In this document: one piece after another, positions 6,378 to 33,556 of the stretch
Numbering within the stretch: position 1 is the first letter of the stretch
Layout: each line of letters begins with the position of its first letter
Made by a program: the position numbers and the translations under genes
The notes under the pieces: generated by a model
The model's input: only the letters and a program-made list of their open reading frames with translations
What the model was told of the DNA's origin: nothing
The model's database searches: none
DNA from: Candidatus Iainarchaeum sp.
Lineage (GTDB): Archaea > Iainarchaeota > Iainarchaeia > Iainarchaeales > JAFGBZ01
Assembly (NCBI GenBank): GCA_016932875.1
Contig: JAFGBZ010000062.1
Coordinates: forward strand, 1 to 33,556
Length of the DNA: 33,556 nt
Direction: 5' to 3'

Positions 6378-7649
6378 ATGGAATTTAATGAAATAACTTT
6401 AAGCAAAGAAGAACTGCCAAAAAATTACTATAATTTTATGGCTGATTTAGATAAACCAATGCCAATACCTAAAGGAGATATGAGCATTTTAGGAAAAGTT
6501 TTTGGTAAAAGCGTGCTGGAACAGGAAATGAGTCAAGAAAGGTTTATTCCTATTCCGCAGGAAGTAAGAGAAATTTATTCTCTTTTAGGAAGACCTACAC
6601 CAGTTTACAGGGCAAGAAGACTTGAAAAAAAACTGAACACGCCTGCAAAAATTTATTTTAAAAGAGAAGATGTTTCAGTTGTGGGCTCGCATAAAACAAA
6701 TACAGCAATAGCGCAGGCATATTACTGTAAAAAAGACGGCTTCACTCATTTAACAACTGAAACAGGAGCAGGATATTGGGGAAGCGCATTGGCTGTGGCA
6801 AGCACTTTATTTGATTTGAAATGCAAAGTATTCATGGTTTCAAGCAGCTATGAACAAAAGCCATACAAGAAATATTTAATGAAATTATTTGGAGCTGAAG
6901 TGATTTCTTCTCCTTCAAATAAAACAAAGTATGGAAAAAAAATTCTTGCAGAAAACCCAAATCATATTGGTTCATTAGGAATTGCAATAAGCGAAGCAAT
7001 GGAATTAGCGATGCAGGATGAAAAAACCGCTTACTGTCTGGGAAGTGTTTTAAACCATGTAATGATTCATCAATCAGTAATAGGACAAGAAGCAATAATT
7101 CAAATGCAGAAAGCAGATGATTTTCCTGATTCAATTATTGCATGCGTTGGAGGAGGAAGTAATTTTTCCGGAATTGCTTTTCCATTCATGCAGAAAAAAT
7201 TCAAAGACAAAGAAATTAATTTTACTGCAGTTGAACCAAAAGAAAGCGCTTCAATAACAAAAGGAAAATATGAATATGATTACGGCGACAGCTCAGGATT
7301 AACTCCTTTAATGAAAATGTATACGCTTGGAAAAGATTTTATTCCAGAACTGATTTTTGCACAAGGATTAAGATATCATGCAATGGCTCCAAGTTTATCA
7401 CATTTTGTAAAACAAGGAAAAATCAATGCAAAAGCATATGCACAAAAAGAAGTTTTTCTTGCAGCAAAAATTTTCAGTGAAACTCAAGGATTAGTTCCGG
7501 CGCCGGAATCAGCTCACGCAATAAAAGAAGCAATTGAACAAGCAATTGAATGCAAAAAAACAGGTGAAAGCAAAACAATTTTATTCAATTTAAGCGGACA
7601 CGGATTAATGGATTTGCCAGGATATGCAGAAGTATTAAACTTCAAATAA
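6378..7649 (+). CDS. trpB2: Tryptophan synthase beta chain, type 2 (TrpB2)
   Basis: Motifs GRPTP..RA..LE, PLP lysine GSHK.N, TTETGAGYWG, CVGGGSNF, GLRYH, PAPESAHA and NLSGHGL.D. Shine-Dalgarno AGGAGG at 6364-6369. Confidence 0.93.
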   Translation: MEFNEITLSKEELPKNYYNFMADLDKPMPIPKGDMSILGKVFGKSVLEQEMSQERFIPIPQEVREIYSLLGRPTPVYRARRLEKKLNTPAKIYFKREDVSVVGSHKTNTAIAQAYYCKKDGFTHLTTETGAGYWGSALAVASTLFDLKCKVFMVSSSYEQKPYKKYLMKLFGAEVISSPSNKTKYGKKILAENPNHIGSLGIAISEAMELAMQDEKTAYCLGSVLNHVMIHQSVIGQEAIIQMQKADDFPDSIIACVGGGSNFSGIAFPFMQKKFKDKEINFTAVEPKESASITKGKYEYDYGDSSGLTPLMKMYTLGKDFIPELIFAQGLRYHAMAPSLSHFVKQGKINAKAYAQKEVFLAAKIFSETQGLVPAPESAHAIKEAIEQAIECKKTGESKTILFNLSGHGLMDLPGYAEVLNFK

Positions 7650-22920: not shown

Positions 22921-23001
22921 AAATGCGAAGCAAAGACTGCTGAAAGCAGTCTACGCCTGCCGGCTGGCGTGACAGCTGAGCGGAGTGAGCAGCTGAAATG
23001 C
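22921..23001 (+). repeat. GC-rich multi-hairpin element (family A, divergent copy) abutting the 3' end of tRNA-Gly(CCC)
   Basis: GCGAAGC (22925-22931), AGACTGCT-GAA-AGCAGTCT (22934-22952), ACGCC/GGCGT (22953-22970) and CAGCTG/CAGCTG (22973-22995). AAATGC on both sides. Confidence 0.6.
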
Positions 23002-23070
23002 ATCTGCCGGGATTTGAACCCGAATCAAAAGCTTGGGAAGCTCTCATCCTAACCATTAGACTACAGATGC
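22999..23070 (-). tRNA. tRNA-Gly(CCC)
   Basis: Minus strand GCATCTG...AGAGC-TT-CCC-AA-GCTTT...GGTTCAAATCC...CAGATGC-A. No encoded CCA. Confidence 0.94.
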
Positions 23071-23117
23071 AACAAATTAATTGTTTTGAGAATTGTTTAA
23101 ATAATTACGCAAAAATC

Positions 23118-23152
23118 GCACCGGCAACTTACTCCTTCCTTTTGTTTTTAAA
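23118..23152 (+). promoter_or_regulatory. Promoter with shared upstream motif, copy 1 (HTH-LAGLIDADG gene)
   Basis: GCACCGGCAA (23118-23127)-N7-CTTCC-N5-TTTTTAAA (23145-23152)-N21-ATG 23174. Confidence 0.75.
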
Positions 23153-23173
23153 GGAAAAAAAACAAATTTTAGT

Positions 23174-24118
23174 ATGGAAAACCTTTACCTCAATATTGAA
23201 AAAGAAAAGCAAAGGAAACTTGTAGAAATACTAAAACAAAAAGCAGGATTTAGCTGGACTCAACTCGCAAGATTTTTAGGCGTTACAAGAGGAATGACAA
23301 TAAATTACCATACAGGAAAATGCAGAATGCCTTTTGAAAAAATTAAAATGCTGTTCAAGTTAACTAAAACAAGCTGGACTAAATTTGATTTAAAGTTTAT
23401 AGAAGTAAAAAACAAGCCAAAAAACCCAGTTATAAGCGAATTTGACGAAGACTTTGCTGAATTTCTTGGATTACTTTATGGCGATGGATGCTTAAGCAAG
23501 CATGGAAACGTAATCCATGTTACATGCAATGCTGTTTCTGACAGAAAATATGTTGAAGAAACTGTAAAACCAAAATTTGTCAAATTGTTTTCATTAGAAC
23601 CAAAAATAATAATCAATGAAAGCTGGATTCGCTGCCGTTTATATTCAAAAAAAGTTTCTGAATTTCTTTCAAACACTTTTGAAATCCCAATAGGAAAAAA
23701 GAAAGGAAAAATGAAAATTCCTAAAATAATTTATTCAAATCCGGTTTATTATAAAGCATTTTTGAGGGGATTGTTTGATACTGATGGTGGATTTCACAGG
23801 CATCATAAAAACAGTGCACAAATTCATTTTACTAGCGCTGATGAAAATTTTTTGAAAGAAACATGGAAATTATTATTAAAATTAGGGTTTAATGCTAAAT
23901 TAGGTAAAGAAGACATCTGGATTTTGGATTCTGTTGAAATCGATAAATTCTTTAAAGAAATAAATCCACATAATCCAAAACATATTTATAAATACAAAAA
24001 ATACAAAAAAACAGGAATTGTTCCATTACATAGAGAAATAGATTACGCTAAACTATTTGGAGTTTGCGACCGCCGGGAATCGAACCCGGCTCCAAAGCTT
24101 GGCAAGCTCCGATCATAA
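23174..24118 (+). CDS. Free-standing LAGLIDADG (intein/DOD-type) endonuclease-like protein with N-terminal HTH
   Basis: Cro/XRE-like segment SWTQLARFLGVTRGM..NY..G and two LAGLIDADG helices (AEFLGLLYGDG, AFLRGLFDTDG). The 3' end overlaps tRNA-Gly(GCC) in antisense. Confidence 0.85.
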   Translation: MENLYLNIEKEKQRKLVEILKQKAGFSWTQLARFLGVTRGMTINYHTGKCRMPFEKIKMLFKLTKTSWTKFDLKFIEVKNKPKNPVISEFDEDFAEFLGLLYGDGCLSKHGNVIHVTCNAVSDRKYVEETVKPKFVKLFSLEPKIIINESWIRCRLYSKKVSEFLSNTFEIPIGKKKGKMKIPKIIYSNPVYYKAFLRGLFDTDGGFHRHHKNSAQIHFTSADENFLKETWKLLLKLGFNAKLGKEDIWILDSVEIDKFFKEINPHNPKHIYKYKKYKKTGIVPLHREIDYAKLFGVCDRRESNPAPKLGKLRS

Positions 24119-24137
24119 ACCAATAGACTACGGTCGC
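24065..24137 (-). tRNA. tRNA-Gly(GCC)
   Basis: Minus strand GCGACCG...GGAGC-TT-GCC-AA-GCTTT...GGTTCGATTCC...CGGTCGC-A. Confidence 0.95.
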
Positions 24138-24169
24138 GTACAGAAAAAATTTCTTTTGCAAAAGGTTTA

Positions 24170-25861
24170 TTAAAGGAATTTTTTGATTAAAGAAAACAGC
24201 CATTCAATGAAATCATTTAATGGATTTGAAGATATTTCAGTTGTTTTCTGGGCTTCATCTTGTTTCTGTGTTTGAGGAATTATTACTGGTTCCTGCTTTA
24301 ATGGAACAAAAATTTCAGTAATTGATTTTAATTCATTTGATTCAATTACAAGAAAAACAGTTCCATAATTAAAAGAATCCAAAGAAAGATTCAATTGCTT
24401 TAATTCATTTCCGTTTAATGAAATTGTTTTTTCATCAAATTTTTTTTCATTGAATTCAAGCCATGCATTCAAATCAGTTTCAGCGGTTCCAGTATTTTGA
24501 ATTTTAAATGAAACTTTAAGGGAATTATTTTCCTTGAATGGACTTACATCAATTAATTTAATTTCCCCTTCCTGTGATACAACAATAGTTTCTTCAGGAA
24601 AAACATTTAATTCAATTTCTTTTTCTGAATCAGGAGAAAAAAACTTTCCTGTGTAAGTGAAGTATTTTCCTTTTTCTCCATCCAAAGGAGAAACAATAAT
24701 CCATTCTATTTCAATTGTTTTTCCTGGTTTTACTAATAAAAGATGTTTTTCTTTTTCTGAAATGAATTCTTCGTGAAGCAATAATTCAACTGGAAAAATC
24801 ATTTCAGTTGAAGCAATTGATTTAATTTTTGCTTTAACTGAAAATTTTTCGCCTAAAGAAAGCTTTTCAGGAAAAATTAATTCTGTTTCAGTTAAATCAG
24901 TGAAATGAGTTACTTTAATTATTTCAATTTCAGGTTTAAGCAAAGTCATTTCAATTTTCAAATCATTAACTGAATTAATTGTTGTTTCAACTGAACTGAA
25001 TTCATTTGCATCTTTTCCTTTGCTTAAAATAATGTGCGCTGCATCAACAAATCCTGCTTCAGAAAAAGTTGAATCAACCGGCAACCAGCCTTTCCCTTGA
25101 ATAAATAATTCATTCCATCCGTGGCTTCCGAATTCTTTTCCATCAAAACTTATTCCTGAAACATATTTTGCAGGAATTCCTTTAATGCGCGCGAAAGCTG
25201 CAGTTAAATTAGCAAATTCATCGCATACTCCTTTTCTTAACTCGTAAGTTTTTTTAGCTGAATTAATGAAAGGATAAAAATCATAATCATATTCAATATT
25301 GTTTGAAACCCAGTCAGTTATTTCCATTAAAGTTTCAATTGAAGCGCCTTTCCTGAATTCAATTCCTGCTTTAGCAATTAACTGTGGGTCATTTGATTCA
25401 ATAAAAAAAGTTGGATTTAAATAATCAGTAAATTCATCAAGAAATGCATTAAAATCCTGTTTTTTATTTAATTCTATTTCAGATTCGCGCTGAACCCTTG
25501 CTTTAATAATTATTTTAAATTCAGGATTTAAAGAAAATTCATTTAATTTATCAACTTTAAATACAGCATATCTTGAACCATTAATTATTTCTGATTCAGC
25601 TGAAAATTCTTTTCCATCAAAAAAAAGTTTTTCATTAAGTTCAGAAATTTTTTGCCCTTCAAATTCATTAAAGCTTAAAGCCTTGAAAGTAATTGAATCA
25701 TTTTCAGATGTTTTTCCTAAAAGAGTTCCTTCAGCAGTCATTGAAACAACTGCATCCATAAAAGAAATTGAATTAGGCTGTATTTCCAATGAAAAAGAAT
25801 TCATTAAAAAAAACATAAAAAATAAAATCAAAAACAATTTACTTAAATTCATAAAATTCAT
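24170..25861 (-). CDS. Exported transglutaminase-like (Cys-His-Asp) protein with C-terminal Ig/CARDB-like domains
   Basis: GVCDEFANL...R..GIPAKYVSG, H.W.E and GW.PVD.T. The signal peptide begins at MNFMNLSKLFLILFF, so the start is 25861 or 25852 rather than 26056. Confidence 0.85.
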   Translation of the reverse strand: MNFMNLSKLFLILFFMFFLMNSFSLEIQPNSISFMDAVVSMTAEGTLLGKTSENDSITFKALSFNEFEGQKISELNEKLFFDGKEFSAESEIINGSRYAVFKVDKLNEFSLNPEFKIIIKARVQRESEIELNKKQDFNAFLDEFTDYLNPTFFIESNDPQLIAKAGIEFRKGASIETLMEITDWVSNNIEYDYDFYPFINSAKKTYELRKGVCDEFANLTAAFARIKGIPAKYVSGISFDGKEFGSHGWNELFIQGKGWLPVDSTFSEAGFVDAAHIILSKGKDANEFSSVETTINSVNDLKIEMTLLKPEIEIIKVTHFTDLTETELIFPEKLSLGEKFSVKAKIKSIASTEMIFPVELLLHEEFISEKEKHLLLVKPGKTIEIEWIIVSPLDGEKGKYFTYTGKFFSPDSEKEIELNVFPEETIVVSQEGEIKLIDVSPFKENNSLKVSFKIQNTGTAETDLNAWLEFNEKKFDEKTISLNGNELKQLNLSLDSFNYGTVFLVIESNELKSITEIFVPLKQEPVIIPQTQKQDEAQKTTEISSNPLNDFIEWLFSLIKKFL

Positions 25862-25924
25862 TTTCCAATTTTTACTTTTTTGCAGAACAAAAAAGTGTTT
25901 TCTTTTACTTGAAATATTCCTTTT

Positions 25925-25989
25925 CAATTCCACTAAAGTGGAATTGCTTTTTTTGGGTGAACATAAGCCTTTTTTTCTAAAAAAGGCTT
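25925..25989 (-). repeat. AT-rich double-hairpin element (family B, copy 1) at the 3' end of tRNA-Arg
   Basis: Minus strand: AAGCCTTTTTT-AGA-AAAAAAGGCTT, 18-nt spacer ATGTTCAC..., then CAATTCCAC-TTTA-GTGGAATTG. Confidence 0.7.
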
Positions 25990-26062
25990 TGAGCCCGGAG
26001 GGATTCGAACCCCCAGCCGATTCGTCCGAAGCGAATTGCGCTATCCATTGCGCCACGGGCCC
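25990..26062 (-). tRNA. tRNA-Arg(UCG)
   Basis: Minus strand GGGCCCG...ATTCG-CT-TCG-GA-CGAAT...GGTTCGAATCC...CGGGCTC-A. Confidence 0.95.
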
Positions 26063-26163
26063 TGTTTATCTCTTTTATATTAATCATATAAGAGAGTATT
26101 TATTTTTTGGGTTATGGTTTAAAAACCTTTAAGGTAAAGAAAATAGTAATTGAGTGATTTAAA

Positions 26164-26319
26164 ATGAAGGTTTGTGGCAGTTGTAATAAAGAAGTTTCAG
26201 ATGATTTTGTTGAATTTAAATGTCCTAGTTGCGGTAAAAGCAATATAATTAGATGCCTGCATTGCCGTGCTACTTCAAAAGAATATAAATGCGAAGAATG
26301 CGGTTTTACCGGTCCATAG
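26164..26319 (+). CDS. Small Zn-ribbon protein (DUF1610/HVO_2753-like), below the ORF-track size cutoff
   Basis: MKVCGSCNKEVSDDFVEFKCPSCGKSNIIRCLHCRATSKEYKCEECGFTGP*. Four CxxC pairs, in the usual position upstream of aEF-1beta. Confidence 0.92.
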   Translation: MKVCGSCNKEVSDDFVEFKCPSCGKSNIIRCLHCRATSKEYKCEECGFTGP

Positions 26320-26327
26320 GTGAGTTA

Positions 26328-26591
26328 ATGGGCAAAATGATTGTTATTTACAGAATTAATCCTAAAGAACAAGAACAAGCAGAAGAATGTCTTGAAACCA
26401 TTAAATCAGGAAGTTTTTCAGGCGAATTAAGAGATGTTCAAATGGCTTCACCTGGATTTGGAATAAAAATAATTAAAGCAGCTTTTTTACTGCCTGATAA
26501 AGTTGAAGGCGTAGTAGATAAATTAACTGAAGAAATAACTGCATTAGATTTAGTTGAAGATGCAGAAGTAGAAGGAATGAATTTACTTTAA
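26328..26591 (+). CDS. ef1b: Translation elongation factor 1-beta
   Basis: MG..IV.YRI.P, P.FGIK, D.L.E.I..L..VE.AEV. GGTGA Shine-Dalgarno at 26319-26323 supports start 26328. Synteny with the Zn-ribbon gene. Confidence 0.85.
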   Translation: MGKMIVIYRINPKEQEQAEECLETIKSGSFSGELRDVQMASPGFGIKIIKAAFLLPDKVEGVVDKLTEEITALDLVEDAEVEGMNLL

Positions 26592-26659
26592 TTCTGCACT
26601 GCCGAAGGCGTGCTCACGTGCCAACGGAGTGAACCGTTGAAGGAATGAATTTACTTTAA
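26571..26659 (+). repeat. GC-rich hairpin element (family A, copy 1) flanked by a perfect 21-nt direct repeat of the ef1b 3' end
   Basis: GAAGGAATGAATTTACTTTAA at 26571-26591 and 26639-26659. Core 26592-26638 has two hairpins. Confidence 0.85.
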
Positions 26660-26697
26660 ATTAATTCTATAAACTTTTTCTTTTCTTTTAATATTAT

Positions 26698-28758
26698 ATG
26701 ATTAAATCCATTGAATTAACTAACTGGAAAAGCCATCAGCATTCTGTTTTAGAGTTTGAAAAAGGAACCAATGTATTAATTGGTGTTGCAGGAGCAGGAA
26801 AAAGCAGTGTAATGGATGCAATCTGTTATGCTTTATACGGGACTTTTCCTTCACTGAATTCAAAAAAAGTATCAATTTCTGAAGTGCTTATGAATAAGCC
26901 GATTAAAGCAGAAGAAGGAAAACTAAAGTTATGTTTTGAATACAATGAAAAAGAATATGAAATTGAAAGAACAATTTATTTGAAAGGCGTGAATCAAGCG
27001 AATTTAAGAGAATCAGGAAGAATTATTGCCGGCCCAAAGCCAAAAGAAGTAAATGAAAAAATAATTGATTTAATTAAAGTTGATTTTGATTTATTTTCAA
27101 GAGCAATTTACTCTGAACAAAATAATCTGGATTATTTTTTAAGAATGACTCCAATGCAGAGAAAACAAAAATTTGATGAACTACTGCAGATAAATAAATA
27201 TGAAGAAGCAAGAAGCAATTGCCTGACTGCAGTAAATAGATTAAAGAAAACAAATGAAGAAAGAATGAAATTAATTGAATCGCAAAAAAAAGCATTCAAT
27301 GAAAAAGAATTAAGCATGCTTGAAGAAAAAATAAAAGAAAAAGAAAAATTAATTAATGAAATTGAAAAAAATTCAGTTGAATTAAAGGAAAAAGAAAAAA
27401 CATTAAAGGAAAAAATGCAGAAAAACGAATTAAAGGAAAAAGAATTCAAGGAACTGAATAATGCAGTGAATTTAATTAAAGGGAAAACTGATTCAGCGGA
27501 AAAAGAATTAATGAAAGCAAAAAAAGAAGTAAATGAAAAAAATATTGATAAAATAAAAGAAGAAATGAATGAATTAATTAAAGTGCTTGAATTAATTCCT
27601 TTAAAGAAAAAAGAAATTGAAAAAAAATTGAATGAAAAAGAAGAAAAATATTCAATGAATTTAAAAGAATGCTCTGGAATTGAAGCAAAAGAAAAGCAAT
27701 TGCAGGAATCTAAAAATAAACTGCAGGAAATAGGGGCTGAATGCCCTTTATGCAGGAAACCCATGGAAATGCATTCAAAACAAGAATTAATGCAGGAAAT
27801 TGAAAAAGAAGCAGTAAAACTGAAACAGGAATTTGAATTAAAAGAAAAAGAACTGAAAAAAATAAGCGAAGAAAAAAAAGAATTAAAAAAAGAAATTGAA
27901 TTAATTTCAGAAAAAGAAAAAAAACTGATTGAAGAAAAATATGAACTGCAGGAAAAAATCAGTTCATTTAAATTAATGCAGGAAAAAGAAAAAGAAGTAA
28001 AGGAACTTGAAGAAAAGAAAAAAGAACTGATGAATGCGTTAAAGAAAACAGAATTCAATGAAAAGGAATTCAATGAATTAAAACAGGAATTTTATTCATT
28101 AAAAGAAAAAATTAATTCAAAGGAAAAAGAAATTTCAGGAGAAAAAGAATTAATTCAGGAAATGAATAAACGCATTAATGAAATGAATGAATTCAGGAAA
28201 TCATTCACTGAATTAGAATTAAAAGCAGTTCATTCAAAAGAAATGCAGGAAAAGCTTTCAGTTTTCATGAATTCATTAAAGCAGACTCAAAACGAATTAA
28301 GAGTTGTTTTAATTGATTCAATTAATTCAGCAATGGAAAGCATCTGGCCTCAGGTTTATCCTTACAAAGATTTTTCTTCAGCAAAAATAATTGTAAATGA
28401 AGGAGAATATGAAGTAATGGTGAAAAACAAGGAAAATGAATTCATTAGAGTTGAAGGAATTCTTTCAGGAGGAGAAAGAACTGCAGCAGCAATAACTTTA
28501 AGGATTGCTTTCTCGCTTGTATTAACTCAGAATTTAGGATGGATTATTTTAGATGAACCGACTCATAATTTAGATGAACGTTCAGTGAAAGAATTAGCAG
28601 TAATGCTGAAAAAACATCTGCCTGAAATAGTTGAACAGGTTTTTGTTATAACTCATGATAATGAAATGAAGAACGCTGCAACAGGAAAACTTTATTTACT
28701 GGAAAGAAAAAAAGAAGAATTTGAATCAACAAATATTATTGAAACAAATTTATTTTGA
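26698..28758 (+). CDS. rad50: DNA double-strand break repair ATPase Rad50
   Basis: Walker A GVAGAGKSS, Q-loop YSEQ, coiled coil with central Zn hook CPLC, signature LSGGE, Walker B ILDEPT and ITH. Confidence 0.9.
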   Translation: MIKSIELTNWKSHQHSVLEFEKGTNVLIGVAGAGKSSVMDAICYALYGTFPSLNSKKVSISEVLMNKPIKAEEGKLKLCFEYNEKEYEIERTIYLKGVNQANLRESGRIIAGPKPKEVNEKIIDLIKVDFDLFSRAIYSEQNNLDYFLRMTPMQRKQKFDELLQINKYEEARSNCLTAVNRLKKTNEERMKLIESQKKAFNEKELSMLEEKIKEKEKLINEIEKNSVELKEKEKTLKEKMQKNELKEKEFKELNNAVNLIKGKTDSAEKELMKAKKEVNEKNIDKIKEEMNELIKVLELIPLKKKEIEKKLNEKEEKYSMNLKECSGIEAKEKQLQESKNKLQEIGAECPLCRKPMEMHSKQELMQEIEKEAVKLKQEFELKEKELKKISEEKKELKKEIELISEKEKKLIEEKYELQEKISSFKLMQEKEKEVKELEEKKKELMNALKKTEFNEKEFNELKQEFYSLKEKINSKEKEISGEKELIQEMNKRINEMNEFRKSFTELELKAVHSKEMQEKLSVFMNSLKQTQNELRVVLIDSINSAMESIWPQVYPYKDFSSAKIIVNEGEYEVMVKNKENEFIRVEGILSGGERTAAAITLRIAFSLVLTQNLGWIILDEPTHNLDERSVKELAVMLKKHLPEIVEQVFVITHDNEMKNAATGKLYLLERKKEEFESTNIIETNLF

Positions 28759-28947
28759 TTCTGCTGCACTTACTGTGCGGGTAATAAATCCTGCAACAAG
28801 ATTTCTTGTTGTTTTATCAAAAGGTAAATCCAGTGAATCAACAACTCTTTTGTTTGCATCAAAATTTTCTTTAACAAACTTGTCTTTATATCTTTCAAGC
28901 AATTCAGCTGAAATCATTTTAATTCTTCTTGGAACAGCTTTGCCCAT
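28750..28947 (-). CDS. rps17e: 30S ribosomal protein S17e
   Basis: MG....IK..S.EL..Y...F...F..NK..V.......RN.VAGFITR pattern. Confidence 0.92.
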   Translation of the reverse strand: MGKAVPRRIKMISAELLERYKDKFVKENFDANKRVVDSLDLPFDKTTRNLVAGFITRTVSAAESK

Positions 28948-29160
28948 TTAATTCACCTCAACAATCTCTGATTTTCCATTAGGAAAAGCCCTGATTACAT
29001 TAATTGGAAGGACTTTCTGATCAAATTCAATTTTAGCAATATCAGTTGGAGAAGAATCCTTTGAATATTTTACCAAAGGAGGCGCTCCCAATGAAATTTG
29101 TAATGCTCTAGCGCTAATCAAGCGAGTTACTTCAAAAATACTTAATTTTTCCAAATTCAC
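28948..29160 (-). CDS. rpoK: DNA-directed RNA polymerase subunit K (Rpo6)
   Basis: FE.TRLISARALQISLGAP.LV and IA..EF....LPI.V.R. GTG start. Confidence 0.94.
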   Translation of the reverse strand: MNLEKLSIFEVTRLISARALQISLGAPPLVKYSKDSSPTDIAKIEFDQKVLPINVIRAFPNGKSEIVEVN

Positions 29161-29218
29161 ACCTTAAATAATTAACAATACTTATGATTCTTTTCAAGGA
29201 AAAATTAATAAATGAACA

Positions 29219-30727
29219 CTAAACAGCACATGAGCTCCATTCGGAAACAATTTTAGGAGAAGGAAACCCTGATTTAAGGGAAAAATCCCTTAAAATGCTT
29301 AAAGGGAACTTTGCCTGAACTAATGCCTTTTCAGGGGAACAGAACAGTATTCTGGCTCCATTGCTTGCAAGATTTTCCTTAAATTCATTCAGTATAAGGT
29401 TTTGCAGAGAATCAATTGATTCAGCTAAAACACCTGAATAAAAACGGGAAAAAGGAGACATTAAATGAAAAGGAATTCCTTCAAGCAAAGAATCAATTGA
29501 AAACTGCAAAAAATTAAGGAAAGCAAATTCAGGAGAAACACTTAATTCTTTTTCATAATTTAATGCAAAAGAATCAATAAATTTTTTATTAAATGAAGAA
29601 ATTAATTTCTCGGATTCATTCAATAAAGAAATTAATTCAGCAAATGAACTGGAAATAAAAGAATTTTTTTTAGTGCAATTCCAGATTAATTTAGAGGAAT
29701 CAAAAATTATTTTTACTTTTTTTTCCTTCAATAAATTTAAAGCATCAGGAAGCGGGATTAATGCTCTTTCTTCGCGCATAAAAGGGCCTAAAGGAGGAAA
29801 CTCTAATCCCCATTCTGCCTGATGTTTTTTTCTTGCGTGCATTAAAGGGTTTGATTTATGAAAAGAAGAAGCAAAACTTGGATTAAAAGAAGAAAACATT
29901 AATCCATCAGAAAGAAATTCAACTTCAATTAATGAATTAGGCAAAAGATTTGAATTATTCAATGAACTTGGCTTGCAGCAATTGCAATTAATTGAATCAA
30001 ACCCTAAATTATGAAATTCTTTAAGGAAAAGACTGCTCCAAAGCTGATTGAAATTCATTTCACATAAATTATTTTTAATCACATCAATTTTTTCGCGTTT
30101 AACAGGAAGAAAATCAGATTCAATTCTTTCAGGAAAAGAAAAACTGTTTTCAAAAAAAGAATTCTGCAAAAAAACCTCGCAGGCAATAAATTTTTCAGTT
30201 GAAACAATTGAAGGAGAAATTTTTAAAATTTTGCTTAAAGAAATGCGGTGCAGTAATTCACGCGCACTCTTAGGGCTTGAAGAAAGCATTTCTCTTAAAA
30301 GAGAATTCAATGGAACTGAATCAAGCATTATTTCAGGAAAAGAAACAGAAGAAATTTTTTCAGGAAATTTATTCATAAAAATAAATTCATCAAAATAACT
30401 CCATTTTTTTGAAATAAGAAACTGTCTTTCAGGTTCAATCAATAAAACAGAATCAATTCCAAATAAAGCAGAAAAATTCTTTAAAGCAGAAAAATTCACT
30501 GCAGTGATTTTCAAAGAATTTTTTTCTTCATTCAATGAAATCTGTTTTTTGAATTTATTTGAAATTAATTCAAATGCTTTGGTTTTCAGAGTTAAAGGAA
30601 TAAATGCATAAGGAAAAAACTGTTCACGGTAAATTTTTCCACTGCATCCATTATGAAACTGGCATGCTATTTCCTTTTTTTCTTCTGAATAGAGAACTTT
30701 AACTAAAAATGCTCTTGGGGGAGACAT
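29219..30727 (-). CDS. Catalytically inactivated, truncated family B DNA polymerase (PolB2-like)
   Basis: N-terminal FFPYAF and EPERQFLI. Motif A remnant EMNFNQLWSSL....HNLGFDSINCNCC, WNCTKK.SFI, motif B remnant (SRFY....AESI) and motif C remnant GARILFCSPEKALV. Confidence 0.72.
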   Translation of the reverse strand: MSPPRAFLVKVLYSEEKKEIACQFHNGCSGKIYREQFFPYAFIPLTLKTKAFELISNKFKKQISLNEEKNSLKITAVNFSALKNFSALFGIDSVLLIEPERQFLISKKWSYFDEFIFMNKFPEKISSVSFPEIMLDSVPLNSLLREMLSSSPKSARELLHRISLSKILKISPSIVSTEKFIACEVFLQNSFFENSFSFPERIESDFLPVKREKIDVIKNNLCEMNFNQLWSSLFLKEFHNLGFDSINCNCCKPSSLNNSNLLPNSLIEVEFLSDGLMFSSFNPSFASSFHKSNPLMHARKKHQAEWGLEFPPLGPFMREERALIPLPDALNLLKEKKVKIIFDSSKLIWNCTKKNSFISSSFAELISLLNESEKLISSFNKKFIDSFALNYEKELSVSPEFAFLNFLQFSIDSLLEGIPFHLMSPFSRFYSGVLAESIDSLQNLILNEFKENLASNGARILFCSPEKALVQAKFPLSILRDFSLKSGFPSPKIVSEWSSCAV

Positions 30728-30749
30728 AATAATAAAGAAAAATCCGGAA

Positions 30750-30784
30750 TTTAAAAAGCATCGGAAGGAGTAGATTGCCGGTGC
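30750..30784 (-). promoter_or_regulatory. Promoter with shared upstream motif, copy 2 (PolB2-like gene)
   Basis: Minus strand GCACCGGCAA (30784-30775)-N7-CTTCC-N5-TTTTTAAA (30757-30750)-N22-ATG 30727. Confidence 0.75.
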
Positions 30785-31006
30785 CAGAAATGCATTAAAA
30801 TGCCTTAAAAAGGCAAAAATAAAGGTTAAAGGAATGCTTAAATAACTAATACCACGGAATATGGTTAGCTGATGGAGGCAAAGTTCAGAGGGCTTTGATT
30901 ATCAGCATTAAATCAAAAACAAACCTGCTTTTCCAAAAAAAAATTTTAAAAATTGTTTAACCTAATTAATACCTCTAAAAAAAGAAAAAAAATAAGGGGG
31001 AATATT

Positions 31007-31093
31007 ATGGCTCAAAAAAGGAAAAAAAGAGAAGAAGATGAATCTGAAAGAGAAGATTTTGAAGAAGAAAAATACGAAGAAGATGAATACTAA
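31007..31093 (+). CDS. 28-aa basic/acidic micro-protein
   Basis: MAQKRKKREEDESEREDFEEEKYEEDEY*. Strong AGGGGG Shine-Dalgarno at 30995-31000 and GAA-rich codon usage as in neighbouring genes. Confidence 0.6.
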   Translation: MAQKRKKREEDESEREDFEEEKYEEDEY

Positions 31094-31106
31094 AAAAGGG
31101 AATTAA

Positions 31107-31262
31107 ATGAATGCAGATAAATACGCTAAATGGAATCCACCGAAAACAAAAACATATAAATGCATGAACTGCGGAAAAGAAATAGCTTCAACAGAACAAG
31201 GAAATCCGTTAAGCAAAAGATTTTGTTCAGAAAAATGCAGACAAGAATATCTCACAGAATAA
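31107..31262 (+). CDS. 51-aa TRASH/FCS-type zinc-finger protein
   Basis: MNADKYAKWNPPKTKTYKCMNCGKEIASTEQGNPLSKRFCSEKCRQEYLTE*. CxxC...FCSxxC motif and AAGGG Shine-Dalgarno. Confidence 0.82.
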   Translation: MNADKYAKWNPPKTKTYKCMNCGKEIASTEQGNPLSKRFCSEKCRQEYLTE

Positions 31263-31277
31263 AATTACTATTTTTTT

Positions 31278-31309
31278 AAGGGAAGAAATTCCCTTCACTT
31301 TTTATTTTT
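31278..31309 (+). terminator. Hairpin plus T tract after the small-ORF pair
   Basis: AAGGGAA-GAAA-TTCCCTT (31278-31295) followed by CACTTTTTATTTTT. Confidence 0.55.
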
Positions 31310-31340
31310 CACTTTTCAAAATTAATAATATTTAATTAAA

Positions 31341-31435
31341 TTACAAAAAATCTTCTGCTTCAGCCGTCCCGTCGGCTGGCGGACGGAGCACGCCTTCAGC
31401 AGTGCAGAATCAATTCACAGAAAATCTTCTGCTTC
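31341..31435 (-). repeat. GC-rich hairpin element (family A, copy 2) flanked by a 21-nt near-perfect direct repeat of the herA 3' end
   Basis: Minus strand GAAGCAGAAGATTTTCTGTGA (31435-31415) and GAAGCAGAAGATTTTTTGTAA (31361-31341). The core shares 24 of 25 nt with 26591-26615. Confidence 0.85.
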
Positions 31436-32956
31436 TTTTACTGCTTCATCTTTGTTTTCTTCAAATCTTTTTGCTTCATCTTCTAAAGTAACTGAATGCC
31501 TTGATTCAGGAGAATTTCTTTTTCTTACACTGAAAAAAAGAGGATAATTAACTCCTTCACCAATAATTAATGCTTCTCCAACTCTTAAAGAAGTAATCAT
31601 GTCTTTTGAATTTGAATCAATTCCTTCAGCGCTTTTACCAATATGATCCAAATCATAAGGATTAGTAATTCGTAAAATAATGTTTGTATTACACTGGCTT
31701 AAAGCAGTAGCACTTAATTTAATCGGACGCTGAGAAATTAAACACAATGAAGCGCCAAACTTTCTTCCTTCTCTTGCAATTGTTTCAATAATGCTTCTGC
31801 AAATTGCATTCTCATAAGAAGCACCTTCAGGAACAAACTGATGAGCTTCCTCTAAAACCAATAAATAAGGAGGAACTGTTTTTTTTCTGCGTTCATTAAA
31901 TAATTTTGAAGCAAAAAAAGTAACTAAAATCTGTTTCTTGCGTAAATCAATTATATCACTTAAATCAACTACAACTAAATGCCCTGGCTTAATTAAATCA
32001 ATAACTGAAACAGAATCAGTTTTAGAAAATAAACCAAGAGCATGAAGTGAATCAATCCAAGAAATTAAAGCGCTTTTGGTTTTATCATTCATTTCATCAT
32101 CTTTAAATAATTCTGATTTAACTGAATGAAAATCAAATGGCCCTAATCCTTCCTTCATTTCTTTTTTAAGTTTTAAAATCACTTTATCTAATTCACGGAA
32201 CTGTTGCGCAGAAATATTAGGCAGAAAAGAAGCAATCATTCCAGGAGAAAGATTTGAAACACCTATTTTGAAATCTCTTCCATTAATAATTCTGGTTTGA
32301 GTTGAATAATCTTTTTCACCTTTTTCAGGTTTTAAAGCAAAAGAACTGTATTCACCATGAACATCTAAAATAATTGTTGCAATTCTTCCGGCATCTTTTT
32401 TTCTGGAAAGAATTTCCTCTAATAAAACACTCATACAATAACTTTTTCCTGCACCACTCATTGCAAGCAAAGCCAAATGCTTTTGAAGCAGTTTAGTTAA
32501 ATTTAATTTCACTGGAATTTCATGAAAAGGAACTTCTCCTAACAATAAACCGTTTTCTTTATCAAAACCTAAAAATTTTTCCAATATTTTTTCATCAGCA
32601 ATTTTAACTTTATCTCCAGGACTTGGAGGAAAAGTAGGACGCTTAAGCATTCCATTAGAATACACTCCTAAAGGCCTTGTTTGTGCAACCAAATATTCCC
32701 ATTCTTCTGCAGGAAAAGAATCAAATAATTTTCTTCCCTGAGATTCAAATTCTTTTACTGCCTCGCTTCTTTCAAAATAACGATTTGATTTCACTAAATT
32801 AACAACCAAAGCAACAAGAATTCCTTCAGCATAATTAATTTCAACAAACTGTCCGCGATGAACTTTTCCTTTACTTACAACAAAATCCAAAGCACTTGGA
32901 CTTGGCCCTAAAGGACTTGAAACAACTGTACCAATTTCTTCAATCAAAAAAATCAC
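31415..32956 (-). CDS. herA: HerA helicase/translocase (FtsK-HerA family, N-terminal HAS barrel)
   Basis: IGTVVS...F.V...V..GQFV barrel. Motifs HLALLAMSGAGKSY, D.HGEY, LEEAHQF.P, IAREGRKFG and ISQRP..L....LSQCNT. Confidence 0.88.
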   Translation of the reverse strand: MIFLIEEIGTVVSSPLGPSPSALDFVVSKGKVHRGQFVEINYAEGILVALVVNLVKSNRYFERSEAVKEFESQGRKLFDSFPAEEWEYLVAQTRPLGVYSNGMLKRPTFPPSPGDKVKIADEKILEKFLGFDKENGLLLGEVPFHEIPVKLNLTKLLQKHLALLAMSGAGKSYCMSVLLEEILSRKKDAGRIATIILDVHGEYSSFALKPEKGEKDYSTQTRIINGRDFKIGVSNLSPGMIASFLPNISAQQFRELDKVILKLKKEMKEGLGPFDFHSVKSELFKDDEMNDKTKSALISWIDSLHALGLFSKTDSVSVIDLIKPGHLVVVDLSDIIDLRKKQILVTFFASKLFNERRKKTVPPYLLVLEEAHQFVPEGASYENAICRSIIETIAREGRKFGASLCLISQRPIKLSATALSQCNTNIILRITNPYDLDHIGKSAEGIDSNSKDMITSLRVGEALIIGEGVNYPLFFSVRKRNSPESRHSVTLEDEAKRFEENKDEAVKEAEDFL

Positions 32957-33159
32957 TTTAATTTTTCATTTAAATTTTTTTTAAAATTATTAATAAACTT
33001 ATAATCGCCTTCCAATACAATTCCAGAATAACCACAATCCATGCAGTTATGCAACTGCCCAAAAGGATAACCTTGTGCATTAAATACATGCTTTAAATTA
33101 ACTGAACTGCATTTAGGGCAAAACAAAAAAACTTTTTCAGAATTACTTTTTTCCTTCAC
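32953..33159 (-). CDS. Small Zn-ribbon protein, paralogue 2
   Basis: FCPKCSS...CMDCGYSG..EGDYKFIN.FK.NL. GTG start overlapping the upstream gene. Confidence 0.75.
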   Translation of the reverse strand: MKEKSNSEKVFLFCPKCSSVNLKHVFNAQGYPFGQLHNCMDCGYSGIVLEGDYKFINNFKKNLNEKLK

Positions 33160-33328
33160 TTAAATTCCTCTTAAATTCATTAATAAACTTATAATCTCCT
33201 TCCATTGCAAAACCAGTAAAACCGCATTTCTTGCATTTAAACTGTCCTGATTGAAAACCAATAAATTCTTCTAATTCAGTTGAACCGCATCTCGGACAAA
33301 ACCTTGAAACAGGAAGTTTAGGCTCCAT
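33143..33328 (-). CDS. Small Zn-ribbon protein, paralogue 1
   Basis: FCPRCGS...CKKCGFTG..EGDYKFIN.FK.NL. Confidence 0.8.
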   Translation of the reverse strand: MEPKLPVSRFCPRCGSTELEEFIGFQSGQFKCKKCGFTGFAMEGDYKFINEFKRNLSEGKK

Positions 33329-33351
33329 GAAAAAGAAATGAATGAAAGTAA

Positions 33352-33384
33352 TTTAAAAAGATTTAGGAAGCACTTTGCCGGTGC
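33352..33384 (-). promoter_or_regulatory. Promoter with shared upstream motif, copy 3 (Zn-ribbon/Zn-ribbon/herA operon)
   Basis: Minus strand GCACCGGCAA (33384-33375)-N4-CTTCC-N6-TTTTTAAA (33359-33352)-N23-ATG 33328. Confidence 0.75.
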
Positions 33385-33386
33385 CA

Positions 33387-33453
33387 AGCTTTCTTTTTAG
33401 AAAAAAGAAAGCTGTGTTCGCAAAGAAAAAATGAATTTCGCAAGCGAAATTCA
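33387..33453 (+). repeat. AT-rich double-hairpin element (family B, copy 2)
   Basis: AGCTTTCTTTTT-AGA-AAAAAGAAAGCT, 18-nt spacer GTGTTCGC..., then TGAATTTCG-CAAG-CGAAATTCA. Confidence 0.7.
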
Positions 33454-33556
33454 AAAGAAACCAAATCGATTTAAATTAATTTAGCAAATAAAAATAAATA
33501 TTGAATGTGAAAGCTTCCACCTACTAACTGAAAAAATTTGTTAAGCCAAACCCATT

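Follow-up and report, generated by a model that had tools for sequence, protein, structure and literature searches.

A bipartite promoter element upstream of recombination, replication and mobile-type genes in Candidatus Iainarchaeum and its relatives: a predicted operator

Introduction

Whether archaea coordinate the transcription of their DNA repair genes is a long-standing question, and the one case that has been worked out is that of Orc1-2 and the DNA-damage response element (DDRE) in the Sulfolobales. The question is raised anew by a contig of Candidatus Iainarchaeum sp. (JAFGBZ010000062.1 of assembly GCA_016932875.1). In this stretch of 33,556 nucleotides, which is called the window below, the same GC-rich 10-mer, GCACCGGCAA (the box), is found upstream of a gene encoding a LAGLIDADG protein, a gene encoding a protein with a predicted family B DNA polymerase (PolB) fold, and an operon containing herA. 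A sequence-only reading of the window had proposed that these three belong to a distinct set of co-regulated DNA-transaction promoters, served by an operator of new sequence. How far does the box extend beyond the window, is it kept in relatives, and what may it be for? As described below, the proposed regulon and its predicted operator were supported and enlarged to about 25 sites. The genomic signal alone defines a compact regulon (radA, nurA/herA, hel308, mcm, and the PolB-like gene) in uncultivated DPANN archaea. It persists throughout an order, and in the case of radA it extends to the Micrarchaeota; the box provides a concrete DNA bait for a search for the regulator.

A Bipartite Element at a Fixed Distance from the TATA Box

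Against an expectation of 0.01, the window contains three exact matches to GCACCGGCAA, a number that was not attained in any of 100 dinucleotide-preserving shuffles. Each copy lies between genes and has the same orientation as its downstream open reading frame (ORF), and the distance from the start of the box to the ATG is 56, 57, and 56 nt (Table 1). Copies 1 and 2 also have TACTCCTTCC in common. The three co-oriented 10-mers had been described earlier with these spacings, and all coordinates and the promoter architecture could be reproduced.

The genome to which the window belongs (G000, where the window is contig C96) comprises 1,000,661 nt in 100 contigs, has a G+C content of 29.7 %, and is about 90 % complete. 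GCACCGGCAA is found 21 times in this genome (12 forward, 9 reverse), while the reversed control word is absent. Among words seen at least eight times the top-enriched 10-mer is CGCACCGGCA, with 17 copies or 289 times the mononucleotide expectation. Two of the 21 exact copies (on C28 and C50) are without a TATA box or other promoter context and look coding. The remaining 19 were combined with six copies carrying one mismatch, and from these 25 promoter-like copies a position weight matrix (PWM) was built. The matrix is trained on the same sites that it reports, and the seeds match by construction; the informative result of the scan is the near-empty score gap below them. The 25 sites score 25-41, the four or five weak candidates that come next 23.0, 20.6, 16.8, and 15.3, and only 33 positions in the genome score above 8.

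A TATA-like hexamer is found 24-30 nt after the start of the box at all 25 sites. In 18 of the promoters an ORF of at least 30 amino acids has its first start codon at +53 to +60, and in 23 this codon falls within +45 to +130; the listed start of mcm is a TTG at +48, and an in-frame ATG is seen by eye at +54. The bias in position and orientation that had been predicted from the three window copies thus holds genome-wide. The possibility that the box is the end of a dispersed repeat was put to the test as well, and it is not: pairwise comparison of the sites gives an average identity of 0.77 for the box itself, against 0.31 over the preceding 35 nt and 0.44 beyond the TATA box.

The information content is high at C-GCACCGG-C-A-A and again at the TAC in positions +12 to +14, where the C at +14 is invariant. 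This promoter element is therefore bipartite, GCACCGG-N5-TAC(T/C)(C/T), with a total length of about 18-22 bp, and the 10-mer forms its 5' half, which is strongly conserved. In 18 of the 25 promoters TAC[TC][CT] stands in the place of the 3' half, and copy 1 of the window can be read in this way as GCACCGG-N5-TACTCC. The G000 consensus is (T/C)(C/G)GCACCGG-CAAnn-TAC(T/C)(C/T). Counted from the start codon it covers about -56 to -35, its end lying immediately upstream of the TFB recognition element (BRE) and TATA.

When a crude gene set of 981 ORFs was surveyed, TATA-like hexamers were found to be most frequent 30, 29, and 28 nt before the ATG (48, 69, and 47 genes against a background of about 10-25), while Shine-Dalgarno-like words peak at -13 to -9. 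These spacings indicate that G000 has one leaderless class and one leadered or internal class of promoters, with the box promoters in the leaderless class. The box promoters were compared with 171 other leaderless promoters. The 6-8 nt adjoining TATA are A-rich in both groups, and the scores, taken over the 22 of the 25 box promoters that could be aligned, hardly differ on the BRE side (0.42 for box promoters vs 0.43) or at TATA (6.49 vs 6.52). It had been suggested that a pyrimidine-rich sequence in the BRE position makes these promoters weak in the basal state. This finds no support, since the CTTCC block lies upstream of the BRE position and the BRE and TATA scores equal those of other promoters.

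Genes Preceded by the Box

Ten of the 25 first targets in G000 are replication, recombination or repair genes. These encode RadA (Rad51 family, 319 bits), MCM (C6; it carries an intein with a LAGLIDADG domain), a Hel308-type helicase (DEAD, Helicase_dom4_arc, and HHH_5), NurA, the Zn-ribbon/Zn-ribbon/HerA operon and the 502-aa PolB-fold protein of the window, an SSB-like OB-fold protein behind a 29-aa ORF, a 3'-5' exonuclease of the RNase_H_2 type, a radical-SAM protein with HhH that resembles TIGR03916 (258 bits, below the cut-off of 343.5), and a bacterial-type DinD (NF008573, 347 bits, above cut-off). An enrichment for repair genes such as radA and nurA had been predicted, and these two are among the targets together with mcm.

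Another ten are selfish, toxin or DNA-modifying genes, that is, of nuclease, toxin or mobile type: three encode PIN proteins, three LAGLIDADG proteins (that of the window included), two further Bro-N proteins, one a DUF4258-like protein (22 bits, below cut-off), and one an N6/N4 DNA methylase. The last five are unknown or other, namely ORFs of 214, 279, 77, and 43 aa and a flavodoxin gene 161 nt downstream of its box. Two weak sites precede a GAN/RecJ-like DHH protein (DHH + DHH_CID + DHHA1) and a 90-aa ORF beside tfb at C89:4166-4438. The box thus ties several unannotated genes to DNA maintenance, both that of the 502-aa protein beside herA and those of the 214-, 279-, and 77-aa proteins.

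Three of the box promoters lie within 3.3 kb on one contig (C76:3226-6526), in front of genes encoding Bro-N, the 214-aa unknown protein, and the bacterial-type DinD. This cluster looks like an island of acquired genes under a host operator.

Conservation in Related Archaea

Exact words were counted in related genomes, each against a control word. Across 40 relatives GCACCGGCAA is enriched in several other families, the counts for word and control being 13/0 in G006, 12/1 in G016, 11/1 in G027, 9/1 in G009, 7/0 in G005, 6/1 in G017, and 6/0 in G021. The congener G001 has no copy of GCACCGGCAA. It has instead GCACCGGAA (28/0), which is also enriched in G029 (29/1) and G040 (34/6). In the G+C-richer G026 this word is not enriched (53 vs 109 for the control).

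All 28 GCACCGGAA sites of G001 were viewed by eye, and 21 of them are promoter-like. Twelve sites precede orthologues of G000 targets, including all three window genes; these are the orthologues of Bro-N, DHH, Hel308, the window LAGLIDADG protein, two PIN proteins, the radical-SAM protein, the PolB-like protein, the 61-aa Zn-ribbon ORF (where the box is 56 nt upstream), NurA, DUF4258, and RadA. Other sites precede further LAGLIDADG genes and a GNAT gene. The spacing between GCACCGG and TACTC is equal in the two congeners, while the spacer is CAAnn in G000 and AA(G/C)T(C/G) in G001 at nearly every site. The spacer has in other words changed in concert (GG-CAAnn-TAC vs GG-AAsTC-TAC) with the half-sites kept, which would imply rapid co-evolution of a factor and its whole set of sites.

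G017 belongs to another family and is a single contig of 1,241,428 nt with 43 % G+C. Here variants of the box with a TATA box precede radA, the DHH gene, mcm, a LAGLIDADG gene, and a gene for a PD-(D/E)XK nuclease. A variant also precedes nurA, which is the first gene of a nurA - phosphatase - Zn-ribbon - herA series, and another precedes an operon of small ORFs that probably runs into hel308. The PolB-like gene of G017 has two boxes upstream. Such tandem boxes, 27-31 nt apart, are found upstream of the PolB-like gene in G017, G029, and G040, while G000 has one.

A uniform regular expression (regex), C[AG][CGT][CTG]GG[AC]A followed after 12-30 nt by a TATA-like hexamer, was then applied to the 200 nt upstream of genes in relatives at the order level. 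It was found at 17 of 30 radA genes, 18 of 21 PolB-like genes (a count that leaves out nine loci with an unmatched N-terminus), and none of 30 orc1/cdc6 genes of the C45 type. The corresponding controls were 0, 1, and 2 on the opposite strand and 0, 0, and 0 within genes. Several of the radA misses are variants starting with T or genes with N-terminal extensions. The box has accordingly been retained at orthologous promoters, as the twelve G001 sites also show.

For radA the survey was extended with a slightly different regex to 79 usable loci in a species-level genome collection, where each control gave 1/79. The box was found at 13 of 15 loci in Iainarchaeota/Diapherotrites, 9 of 14 in Micrarchaeota, and 11 of 29 in the remaining archaea, and at none of nine in Nano-/Woesearchaeota and none of 12 in other named archaea. 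In five Micrarchaeota genomes the counts for CCACTGGAAA and its reversed control are 21/0, 9/0, 9/1, 4/1, and 1/1. Of the 44 hits 12 were viewed, and only two radA promoters and perhaps one more are promoter-like; a regulon beyond radA is not established in the Micrarchaeota.

The position of the box close to herA (within 600 nt) is specific to the genus: it was found in 2 of 29 genomes, G000 and G001, with two opposite-strand and one in-gene control hits. In most relatives nurA precedes herA, and the box is found about 60 nt before nurA in 6 of 12 testable loci according to the regex and in 9-11 of 12 by eye. In some relatives, such as G021 with AGTGGA-AA-TCCACT, the halves of the box are inverted copies of each other. 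The flavors of the box include GGCAA, GGAAG, GTGGAAA, and GGGGAAA.

Two further observations concern radA. It has a leader of about 100 nt (C34:4007-4131), unlike the leaderless box promoters, and pieces of this leader are conserved in relatives: a hairpin like GGGGAA...TTCCCC, CAAAAAGC, and then AGGAGG. No credible Rfam match was obtained for four such loci at E <= 1. In G003, G010, G013, G025, G027, and G033 the radA frames are 860-1325 aa long with the RadA match split in two, which suggests that they contain inteins.

Proposed Function of the Box

There are fair grounds for regarding the box as an operator, read by one sequence-specific transcription factor that would co-regulate the about 25 promoters. 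This reading is favored because the element is over-represented, has a fixed position and orientation next to BRE/TATA, precedes a coherent set of targets, and is retained at orthologous promoters while the flanks, and even the spacer, change. A protein is presumed to bind it. This would probably be a dimeric winged-helix or helix-turn-helix (HTH) protein, a dimer being suggested by the halves lying about one helical turn apart and by their inverted-repeat form in some relatives.

The regulon would then have an order-wide core of recombination and replication-restart genes: radA, nurA/herA, the Hel308-type helicase gene, mcm, and the genes for the GAN/RecJ-like DHH protein, the SSB-like protein, and the PolB-fold protein beside herA. 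The LAGLIDADG, PIN, Bro-N/DinD, and DNA methylase genes would form a changing periphery that appears to have captured the same operator. Seen this way the system is a case in nature of selfish elements that have connected themselves to a stress operator of their host, and of an operator drifting in concert between close species.

Next to the BRE the factor might act mainly as an activator, aiding the recruitment of TFB and TBP in analogy with the Sulfolobales DDRE. Activation is favored because the position of the box matches that of the DDRE, which is required for promoter activity. The signal would be DNA damage or replication stress. The genes encoding DinD, the radical-SAM protein, NurA/HerA, the PolB-like protein, and the toxins would argue for damage or stress, and MCM and GAN for a replication signal.

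A more tentative suggestion, held to be possible rather than probable, is that Iainarchaeota, and at least at radA also Micrarchaeota, have a true SOS-like circuit of archaeal design, with one factor and with selfish genes plugged in. The factor would read the box and switch on the recombinase, NurA/HerA end-resection, Hel308, SSB, MCM/GAN, and the catalytically altered PolB encoded next to herA. Homing endonucleases, PIN toxins, and Bro-N/DinD would repeatedly have captured the operator, so as to fire when host recombination is up.

Several points weigh against an operator of a damage regulon. Neither the surroundings of rad50 (window 26698) nor the contig with the replicative PolB gene (C57) has a PWM hit above 8, and the same is true of the two orc1/cdc6 genes (C45 and C99). 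MCM and GAN indicate replication or cell-cycle control as much as damage. With core promoter elements equal to those of other promoters the usual hallmark of activator dependence is gone. The cross-genome counts rest on author-made regexes, the 3' half and the spacer vary between genomes, and some variants were judged by eye. The assembly is 90 % complete and in 100 contigs, and no candidate regulator emerged when TFB, LexA, Orc1/Cdc6, the window LAGLIDADG protein, and an E2F-like protein were examined.

Alternative Explanations and Candidate Regulators

The targets MCM and the GAN/RecJ-like DHH protein are parts of a CMG-type replisome, and RadA, SSB, and Hel308 serve in replication restart too. 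The regulon could for this reason be a cell-cycle or replication-phase program, an archaeal analogue of the eukaryotic G1/S regulons, instead of a damage response, and two bioRxiv preprints report, in the portions available, that cyclic transcription programs exist in archaea. However, DinD, the TIGR03916-like protein, NurA/HerA, the PIN toxins, and the homing-endonuclease genes fit stress or damage better, and the replicative PolB gene and both orc1/cdc6 genes are without a box. This explanation is considered rather unlikely.

The same regulon might also be controlled by a repressor with LexA-like logic, which would block the recruitment of TFB/TBP at the BRE and be released upon damage. The conserved block borders on the BRE position with its 3' end, and because the core promoters are as good as others, repression is equally compatible with the position of the box; TATA and BRE-side scores that match those of other promoters imply that no help is needed. 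The regulon content, with recombinase, PolB-fold protein, dinD, toxins, and mobile genes, moreover mirrors that of bacterial SOS regulons. Most characterised archaeal repressors, on the other hand, bind over TATA or the start site, while the box overlaps neither. The positional precedent, the Sulfolobales DDRE at -39 to -44, acts positively according to the available text of the papers cited below. In the 90 % complete G000 the LexA DNA-binding domain (PF01726) finds no match at E <= 0.001. A repressor is on balance unlikely.

Other regulators were sought among the known types. G000 encodes a single TFB (two cyclin repeats in one 314-aa frame), which leaves no alternative TFB. An E2F_TDP-like winged-helix protein of 256 aa (C2) scores below threshold (15.5-16.5 bits) and was dropped as an order-wide factor with only four homologues in 5.8 billion proteins. 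The HTH-LAGLIDADG protein encoded from 23174 in the window was also considered, as a regulator that would act on its own promoter too, but full-length orthologues are found in only five of the 40 relatives (G001, G005, G036, G027, and G006). In the other relatives only the LAGLIDADG domain matches, and the radA box is far more widespread. The protein is treated as a target and not as the regulator, since it is too patchily distributed; full-length orthologues with a box are found in G001, G036, G027, and G006.

This leaves the two Orc1/Cdc6 paralogues, one of which could be the binder, as Orc1-2 is in the Sulfolobales. Nearly every one of the 41 genomes searched, G000 included, encodes two paralogues, and both are conserved throughout the order. 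Box sequences of the variant type CAGTGGAAAT, found in relatives, are similar to the Pyrococcus mini-ORB (ORB, origin recognition box) TTCCAGTGGAACT (PMC1904270), and Orc1-2 binds a non-palindromic element upstream of the BRE; the 20-bp consensus from S. islandicus ends in TACTC, as does the 3' half here. The G000 box is without the invariant TTCC...GAA of mini-ORBs, and ANTTTC is present in only five of the 25 promoters. While orc1-2 is autoregulated through its own element, a box was found at 0 of 30 or 1 of 30 C45-type orc1/cdc6 promoters in two scans, which surveyed this type only across the relatives, and autoregulation through the box was accordingly rejected. The C99 cdc6 gene is preceded by a different repeat, GTGGAAC-N7-GTTCCAC. 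An Orc1/Cdc6 protein is therefore a quite unlikely binder. In G017 one reverse-oriented box lies next to TATA at orc1/cdc6. One Orc1/Cdc6 paralogue gene is the convergent neighbor of that of the Hel308-type helicase, both in G000 (C99:7830-11241) and in G017 (839783-843047), a conserved synteny.

Selfish genes (LAGLIDADG, PIN, and Bro-N) might instead carry the box about as part of a promoter cassette or dispersed repeat. This would suit the ten mobile or toxin-type targets, of which some are paralogous sets with similar leaders, and the three clustered sites on C76, but is highly improbable given boxes at single-copy core genes (radA, nurA, mcm, hel308, and the PolB-like gene) that are kept across families, flanks as little conserved as stated above, and only two of the 25 boxes touching the GC-rich hairpin repeat described below.

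The PolB-Fold Protein and Other Features of the Window

The three promoters of the window and the genes that they precede are listed in Table 1. The LAGLIDADG part of the first target was confirmed by Pfam, while the N-terminal HTH with which it had been credited is seen by eye only, and no Pfam HTH family matches. The Zn-ribbon/herA operon stands as it was described, with a clear match for HerA and Zn-ribbon matches below the cut-offs.

Table 1. Box copies, TATA-like elements, and target genes in the window.
Feature	Positions	Strand	Remarks
Box copy 1: GCACCGGCAA + CTTACTC + CTTCC	23118..23139 (10-mer 23118-23127)	+	PWM 32.9; box-N7-CTTCC-N5-TTTTTAAA-N21-ATG
Box copy 2: GCACCGGCAA + TCTACTC + CTTCC	30763..30784 (10-mer 30775-30784)	-	PWM 37.6; box-N7-CTTCC-N5-TTTTTAAA-N22-ATG
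Box copy 3: GCACCGGCAA + AGTG + CTTCC	33366..33384 (10-mer 33375-33384)	-	PWM 35.3; box-N4-CTTCC-N6-TTTTTAAA-N23-ATG
TATA-like TTTTTAAA, promoter 1	23145..23152	+	21 nt 5' of ATG 23174
TATA-like TTTTTAAA, promoter 2	30750..30757	-	22 nt 5' of ATG 30727
TATA-like TTTTTAAA, promoter 3	33352..33359	-	23 nt 5' of ATG 33328
Target gene 1: 314-aa LAGLIDADG_3 protein, N-terminal HTH-like region	23174..24118	+	Pfam LAGLIDADG_3, 53.6 bits
Target gene 2: 502-aa family B DNA polymerase-fold protein	29219..30727	-	Predicted structure
Target operon 3: Zn-ribbon/Zn-ribbon-like/HerA	31415..33328	-	Pfam
61-aa Zn-ribbon ORF	33143-33328	-	Pfam Zn-ribbon match below cut-off
68-aa Zn-ribbon-like ORF	32953-33159	-	Pfam Zn-ribbon match below cut-off
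HerA	31415-32956	-	Pfam DUF87/HerA, 109 bits

The 502-aa protein has no match in Pfam (including DNA_pol_B), NCBIfam or the sequences of the PDB. It has 18 homologues, and all the named ones are "hypothetical" and from Diapherotrites or Iainarchaeum records. A model predicted from 17 sequences (pLDDT 91, pTM 0.89) has archaeal family B DNA polymerases as its best Foldseek matches, with E 6.6e-11, probability 1.0, a TMq of about 0.5, and about 10 % identity. The protein had been called a dead PolB2-like polymerase. Its PolB-like nature is supported by the modeled fold, while a loss of motifs B (KxxxNSxYG) and C (DTD) is suggested only by a weak profile alignment: when compared with the 801-aa PolB of G000 itself using hhalign, residues 348-465 alone align, at a probability of 15 %, and the two motifs are not kept. 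No invariant acidic residue is found after D328 among 17 homologues. It is plausible from these sequence comparisons that the protein is catalytically dead. Since the gene adjoins herA on the same strand in many relatives (e.g., G001, G012, G017, G019, G020, G021, G026, and G029), a functional link to the HerA/NurA machine is suggested. In the window two small plus-strand ORFs are seen by eye between herA and the PolB-like gene (30950-31270), one of about 28 aa that is very acidic or basic (MAQKRKKREEDE...) and one of about 52 aa that is Zn-ribbon-like (CxxC...C).

Box 1 sits between two divergent promoters (23072-23127). A TATA-like GTTTAAATAA at 23095-23104 would serve the gene for tRNA-Gly(CCC) (22998-23071, minus strand), and box 1 is about 47-56 nt upstream of this gene as well. 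The gene for tRNA-Gly(GCC) (24065-24137, minus strand) overlaps the end of the plus-strand ORF 23174-24118, and that for tRNA-Arg(TCG) (25990-26062, minus strand) the end of the long ORF 24170-26056, which has a GTG start. Because of these overlaps the true ends or starts of the two ORFs probably make them shorter. In G001 the 23174 protein finds no counterpart for its last 17 residues. Searched with Rfam at the gathering threshold, the window yields tRNAs and nothing else. A look-up of RNA sequencing runs for positions 28900-33556 returned none that contains this DNA.

This otherwise 30 % GC genome also contains a GC-rich element of about 50 nt with two hairpins, which is dispersed over intergenic sites. 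It is present in the window at 22937-23003, 26596-26644, and 31349-31415, and outside it at C6:2886-2968, C34:3975-4025, C99:~7080-7130, and about 30 other places, in both orientations and often beside tRNA genes or gene ends. The first hairpin is like GCAC..CCGAAGG..GTGC, while the second has a stem of 6-7 bp and a loop of the AGTGA or ACGRGA type. No Rfam family corresponds to it. The two boxes that abut this element are those of radA and mcm.

Comparison with Known Systems

In full-text searches the element was not found described in the literature on archaeal radA and repair promoter motifs, on promoters of Iainarchaeum, Diapherotrites or Micrarchaeota, on elements upstream of the BRE, or on DPANN regulons. 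It can be compared with four known systems.

Eukaryotic G1/S regulons (E2F sites and the MCB boxes of yeast) have a winged-helix factor that co-regulates MCM, a Rad51-family recombinase, and Cdc45/GAN-like genes. The box resembles these in being an upstream element at MCM, Rad51-family recombinase, and GAN-like genes, while it differs in that no homologue of the factor is established, the only E2F_TDP-like hit in G000 being the sub-threshold one (15.5 bits). Archaeal activators such as Ptr2 and TFB-RF1 also act from a site just upstream of BRE/TATA.

The mini-ORB carries an invariant TTCC and GAA (PMC1904270, available portions). The variants CAGTGGAAAT and AGTGGAAATCCACT of relatives share the CAGTGGAA core with the Pyrococcus mini-ORB. 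Unlike ORB and mini-ORB sequences, the boxes are single copies at fixed promoter positions and are not clustered at an origin, the G000 form is without TTCC and GAA, and the cdc6-proximal repeat is a different one.

As in the bacterial SOS system, a single predicted operator serves the gene for the recombinase, that for an alternative polymerase-like protein, dinD, and genes of toxins and mobile elements, and a bacterial-type DinD and a TIGR03916-like radical-SAM protein are encoded behind the box. In contrast to SOS, G000 has no LexA DNA-binding domain and the promoters are archaeal with BRE and TATA; unlike a LexA box, the box lies upstream of the core promoter without overlapping it.

The closest positional parallel is the DDRE of the Sulfolobales, 5'-A(N)TTTC-3', which is bound by Orc1-2 and acts with TFB3 (PMC5817253, PMC6061795, PMC9738581). 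In the available portions of these papers it is described as a non-palindromic element in DNA-damage promoters, located directly upstream of the BRE (-39 to -44) and required for promoter activity (PMC5817253, PMC6061795). Among the members named there are ups pili, ced, tfb3, and dpo2, and the regulon governs DNA exchange and cell division as well as dpo2, the PolB2 gene, whose product was long thought inactive; expression of the genes for DNA repair is given as not raised in the part available of another study (PMC2246294). Like the DDRE, the box lies directly upstream of the BRE in a discrete set of promoters, and the extended S. islandicus consensus, as far as the source was available, ends in TACTC. 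Unlike it, the sequence is GCACCGG-N5-TACTCC, with ANTTTC in the five promoters mentioned above (counted from box-10 to box+26), G000 has no TFB paralogue, and there is no box at its orc1/cdc6 promoters. The lineage is DPANN, and the content is centered on radA, nurA/herA, mcm, and hel308. An upstream operator of an archaeal DNA-damage-type regulon is already known in kind from the Sulfolobales, while the sequence of the box, the lineage in which it is found, and the recombination-centered content of its target set are new.

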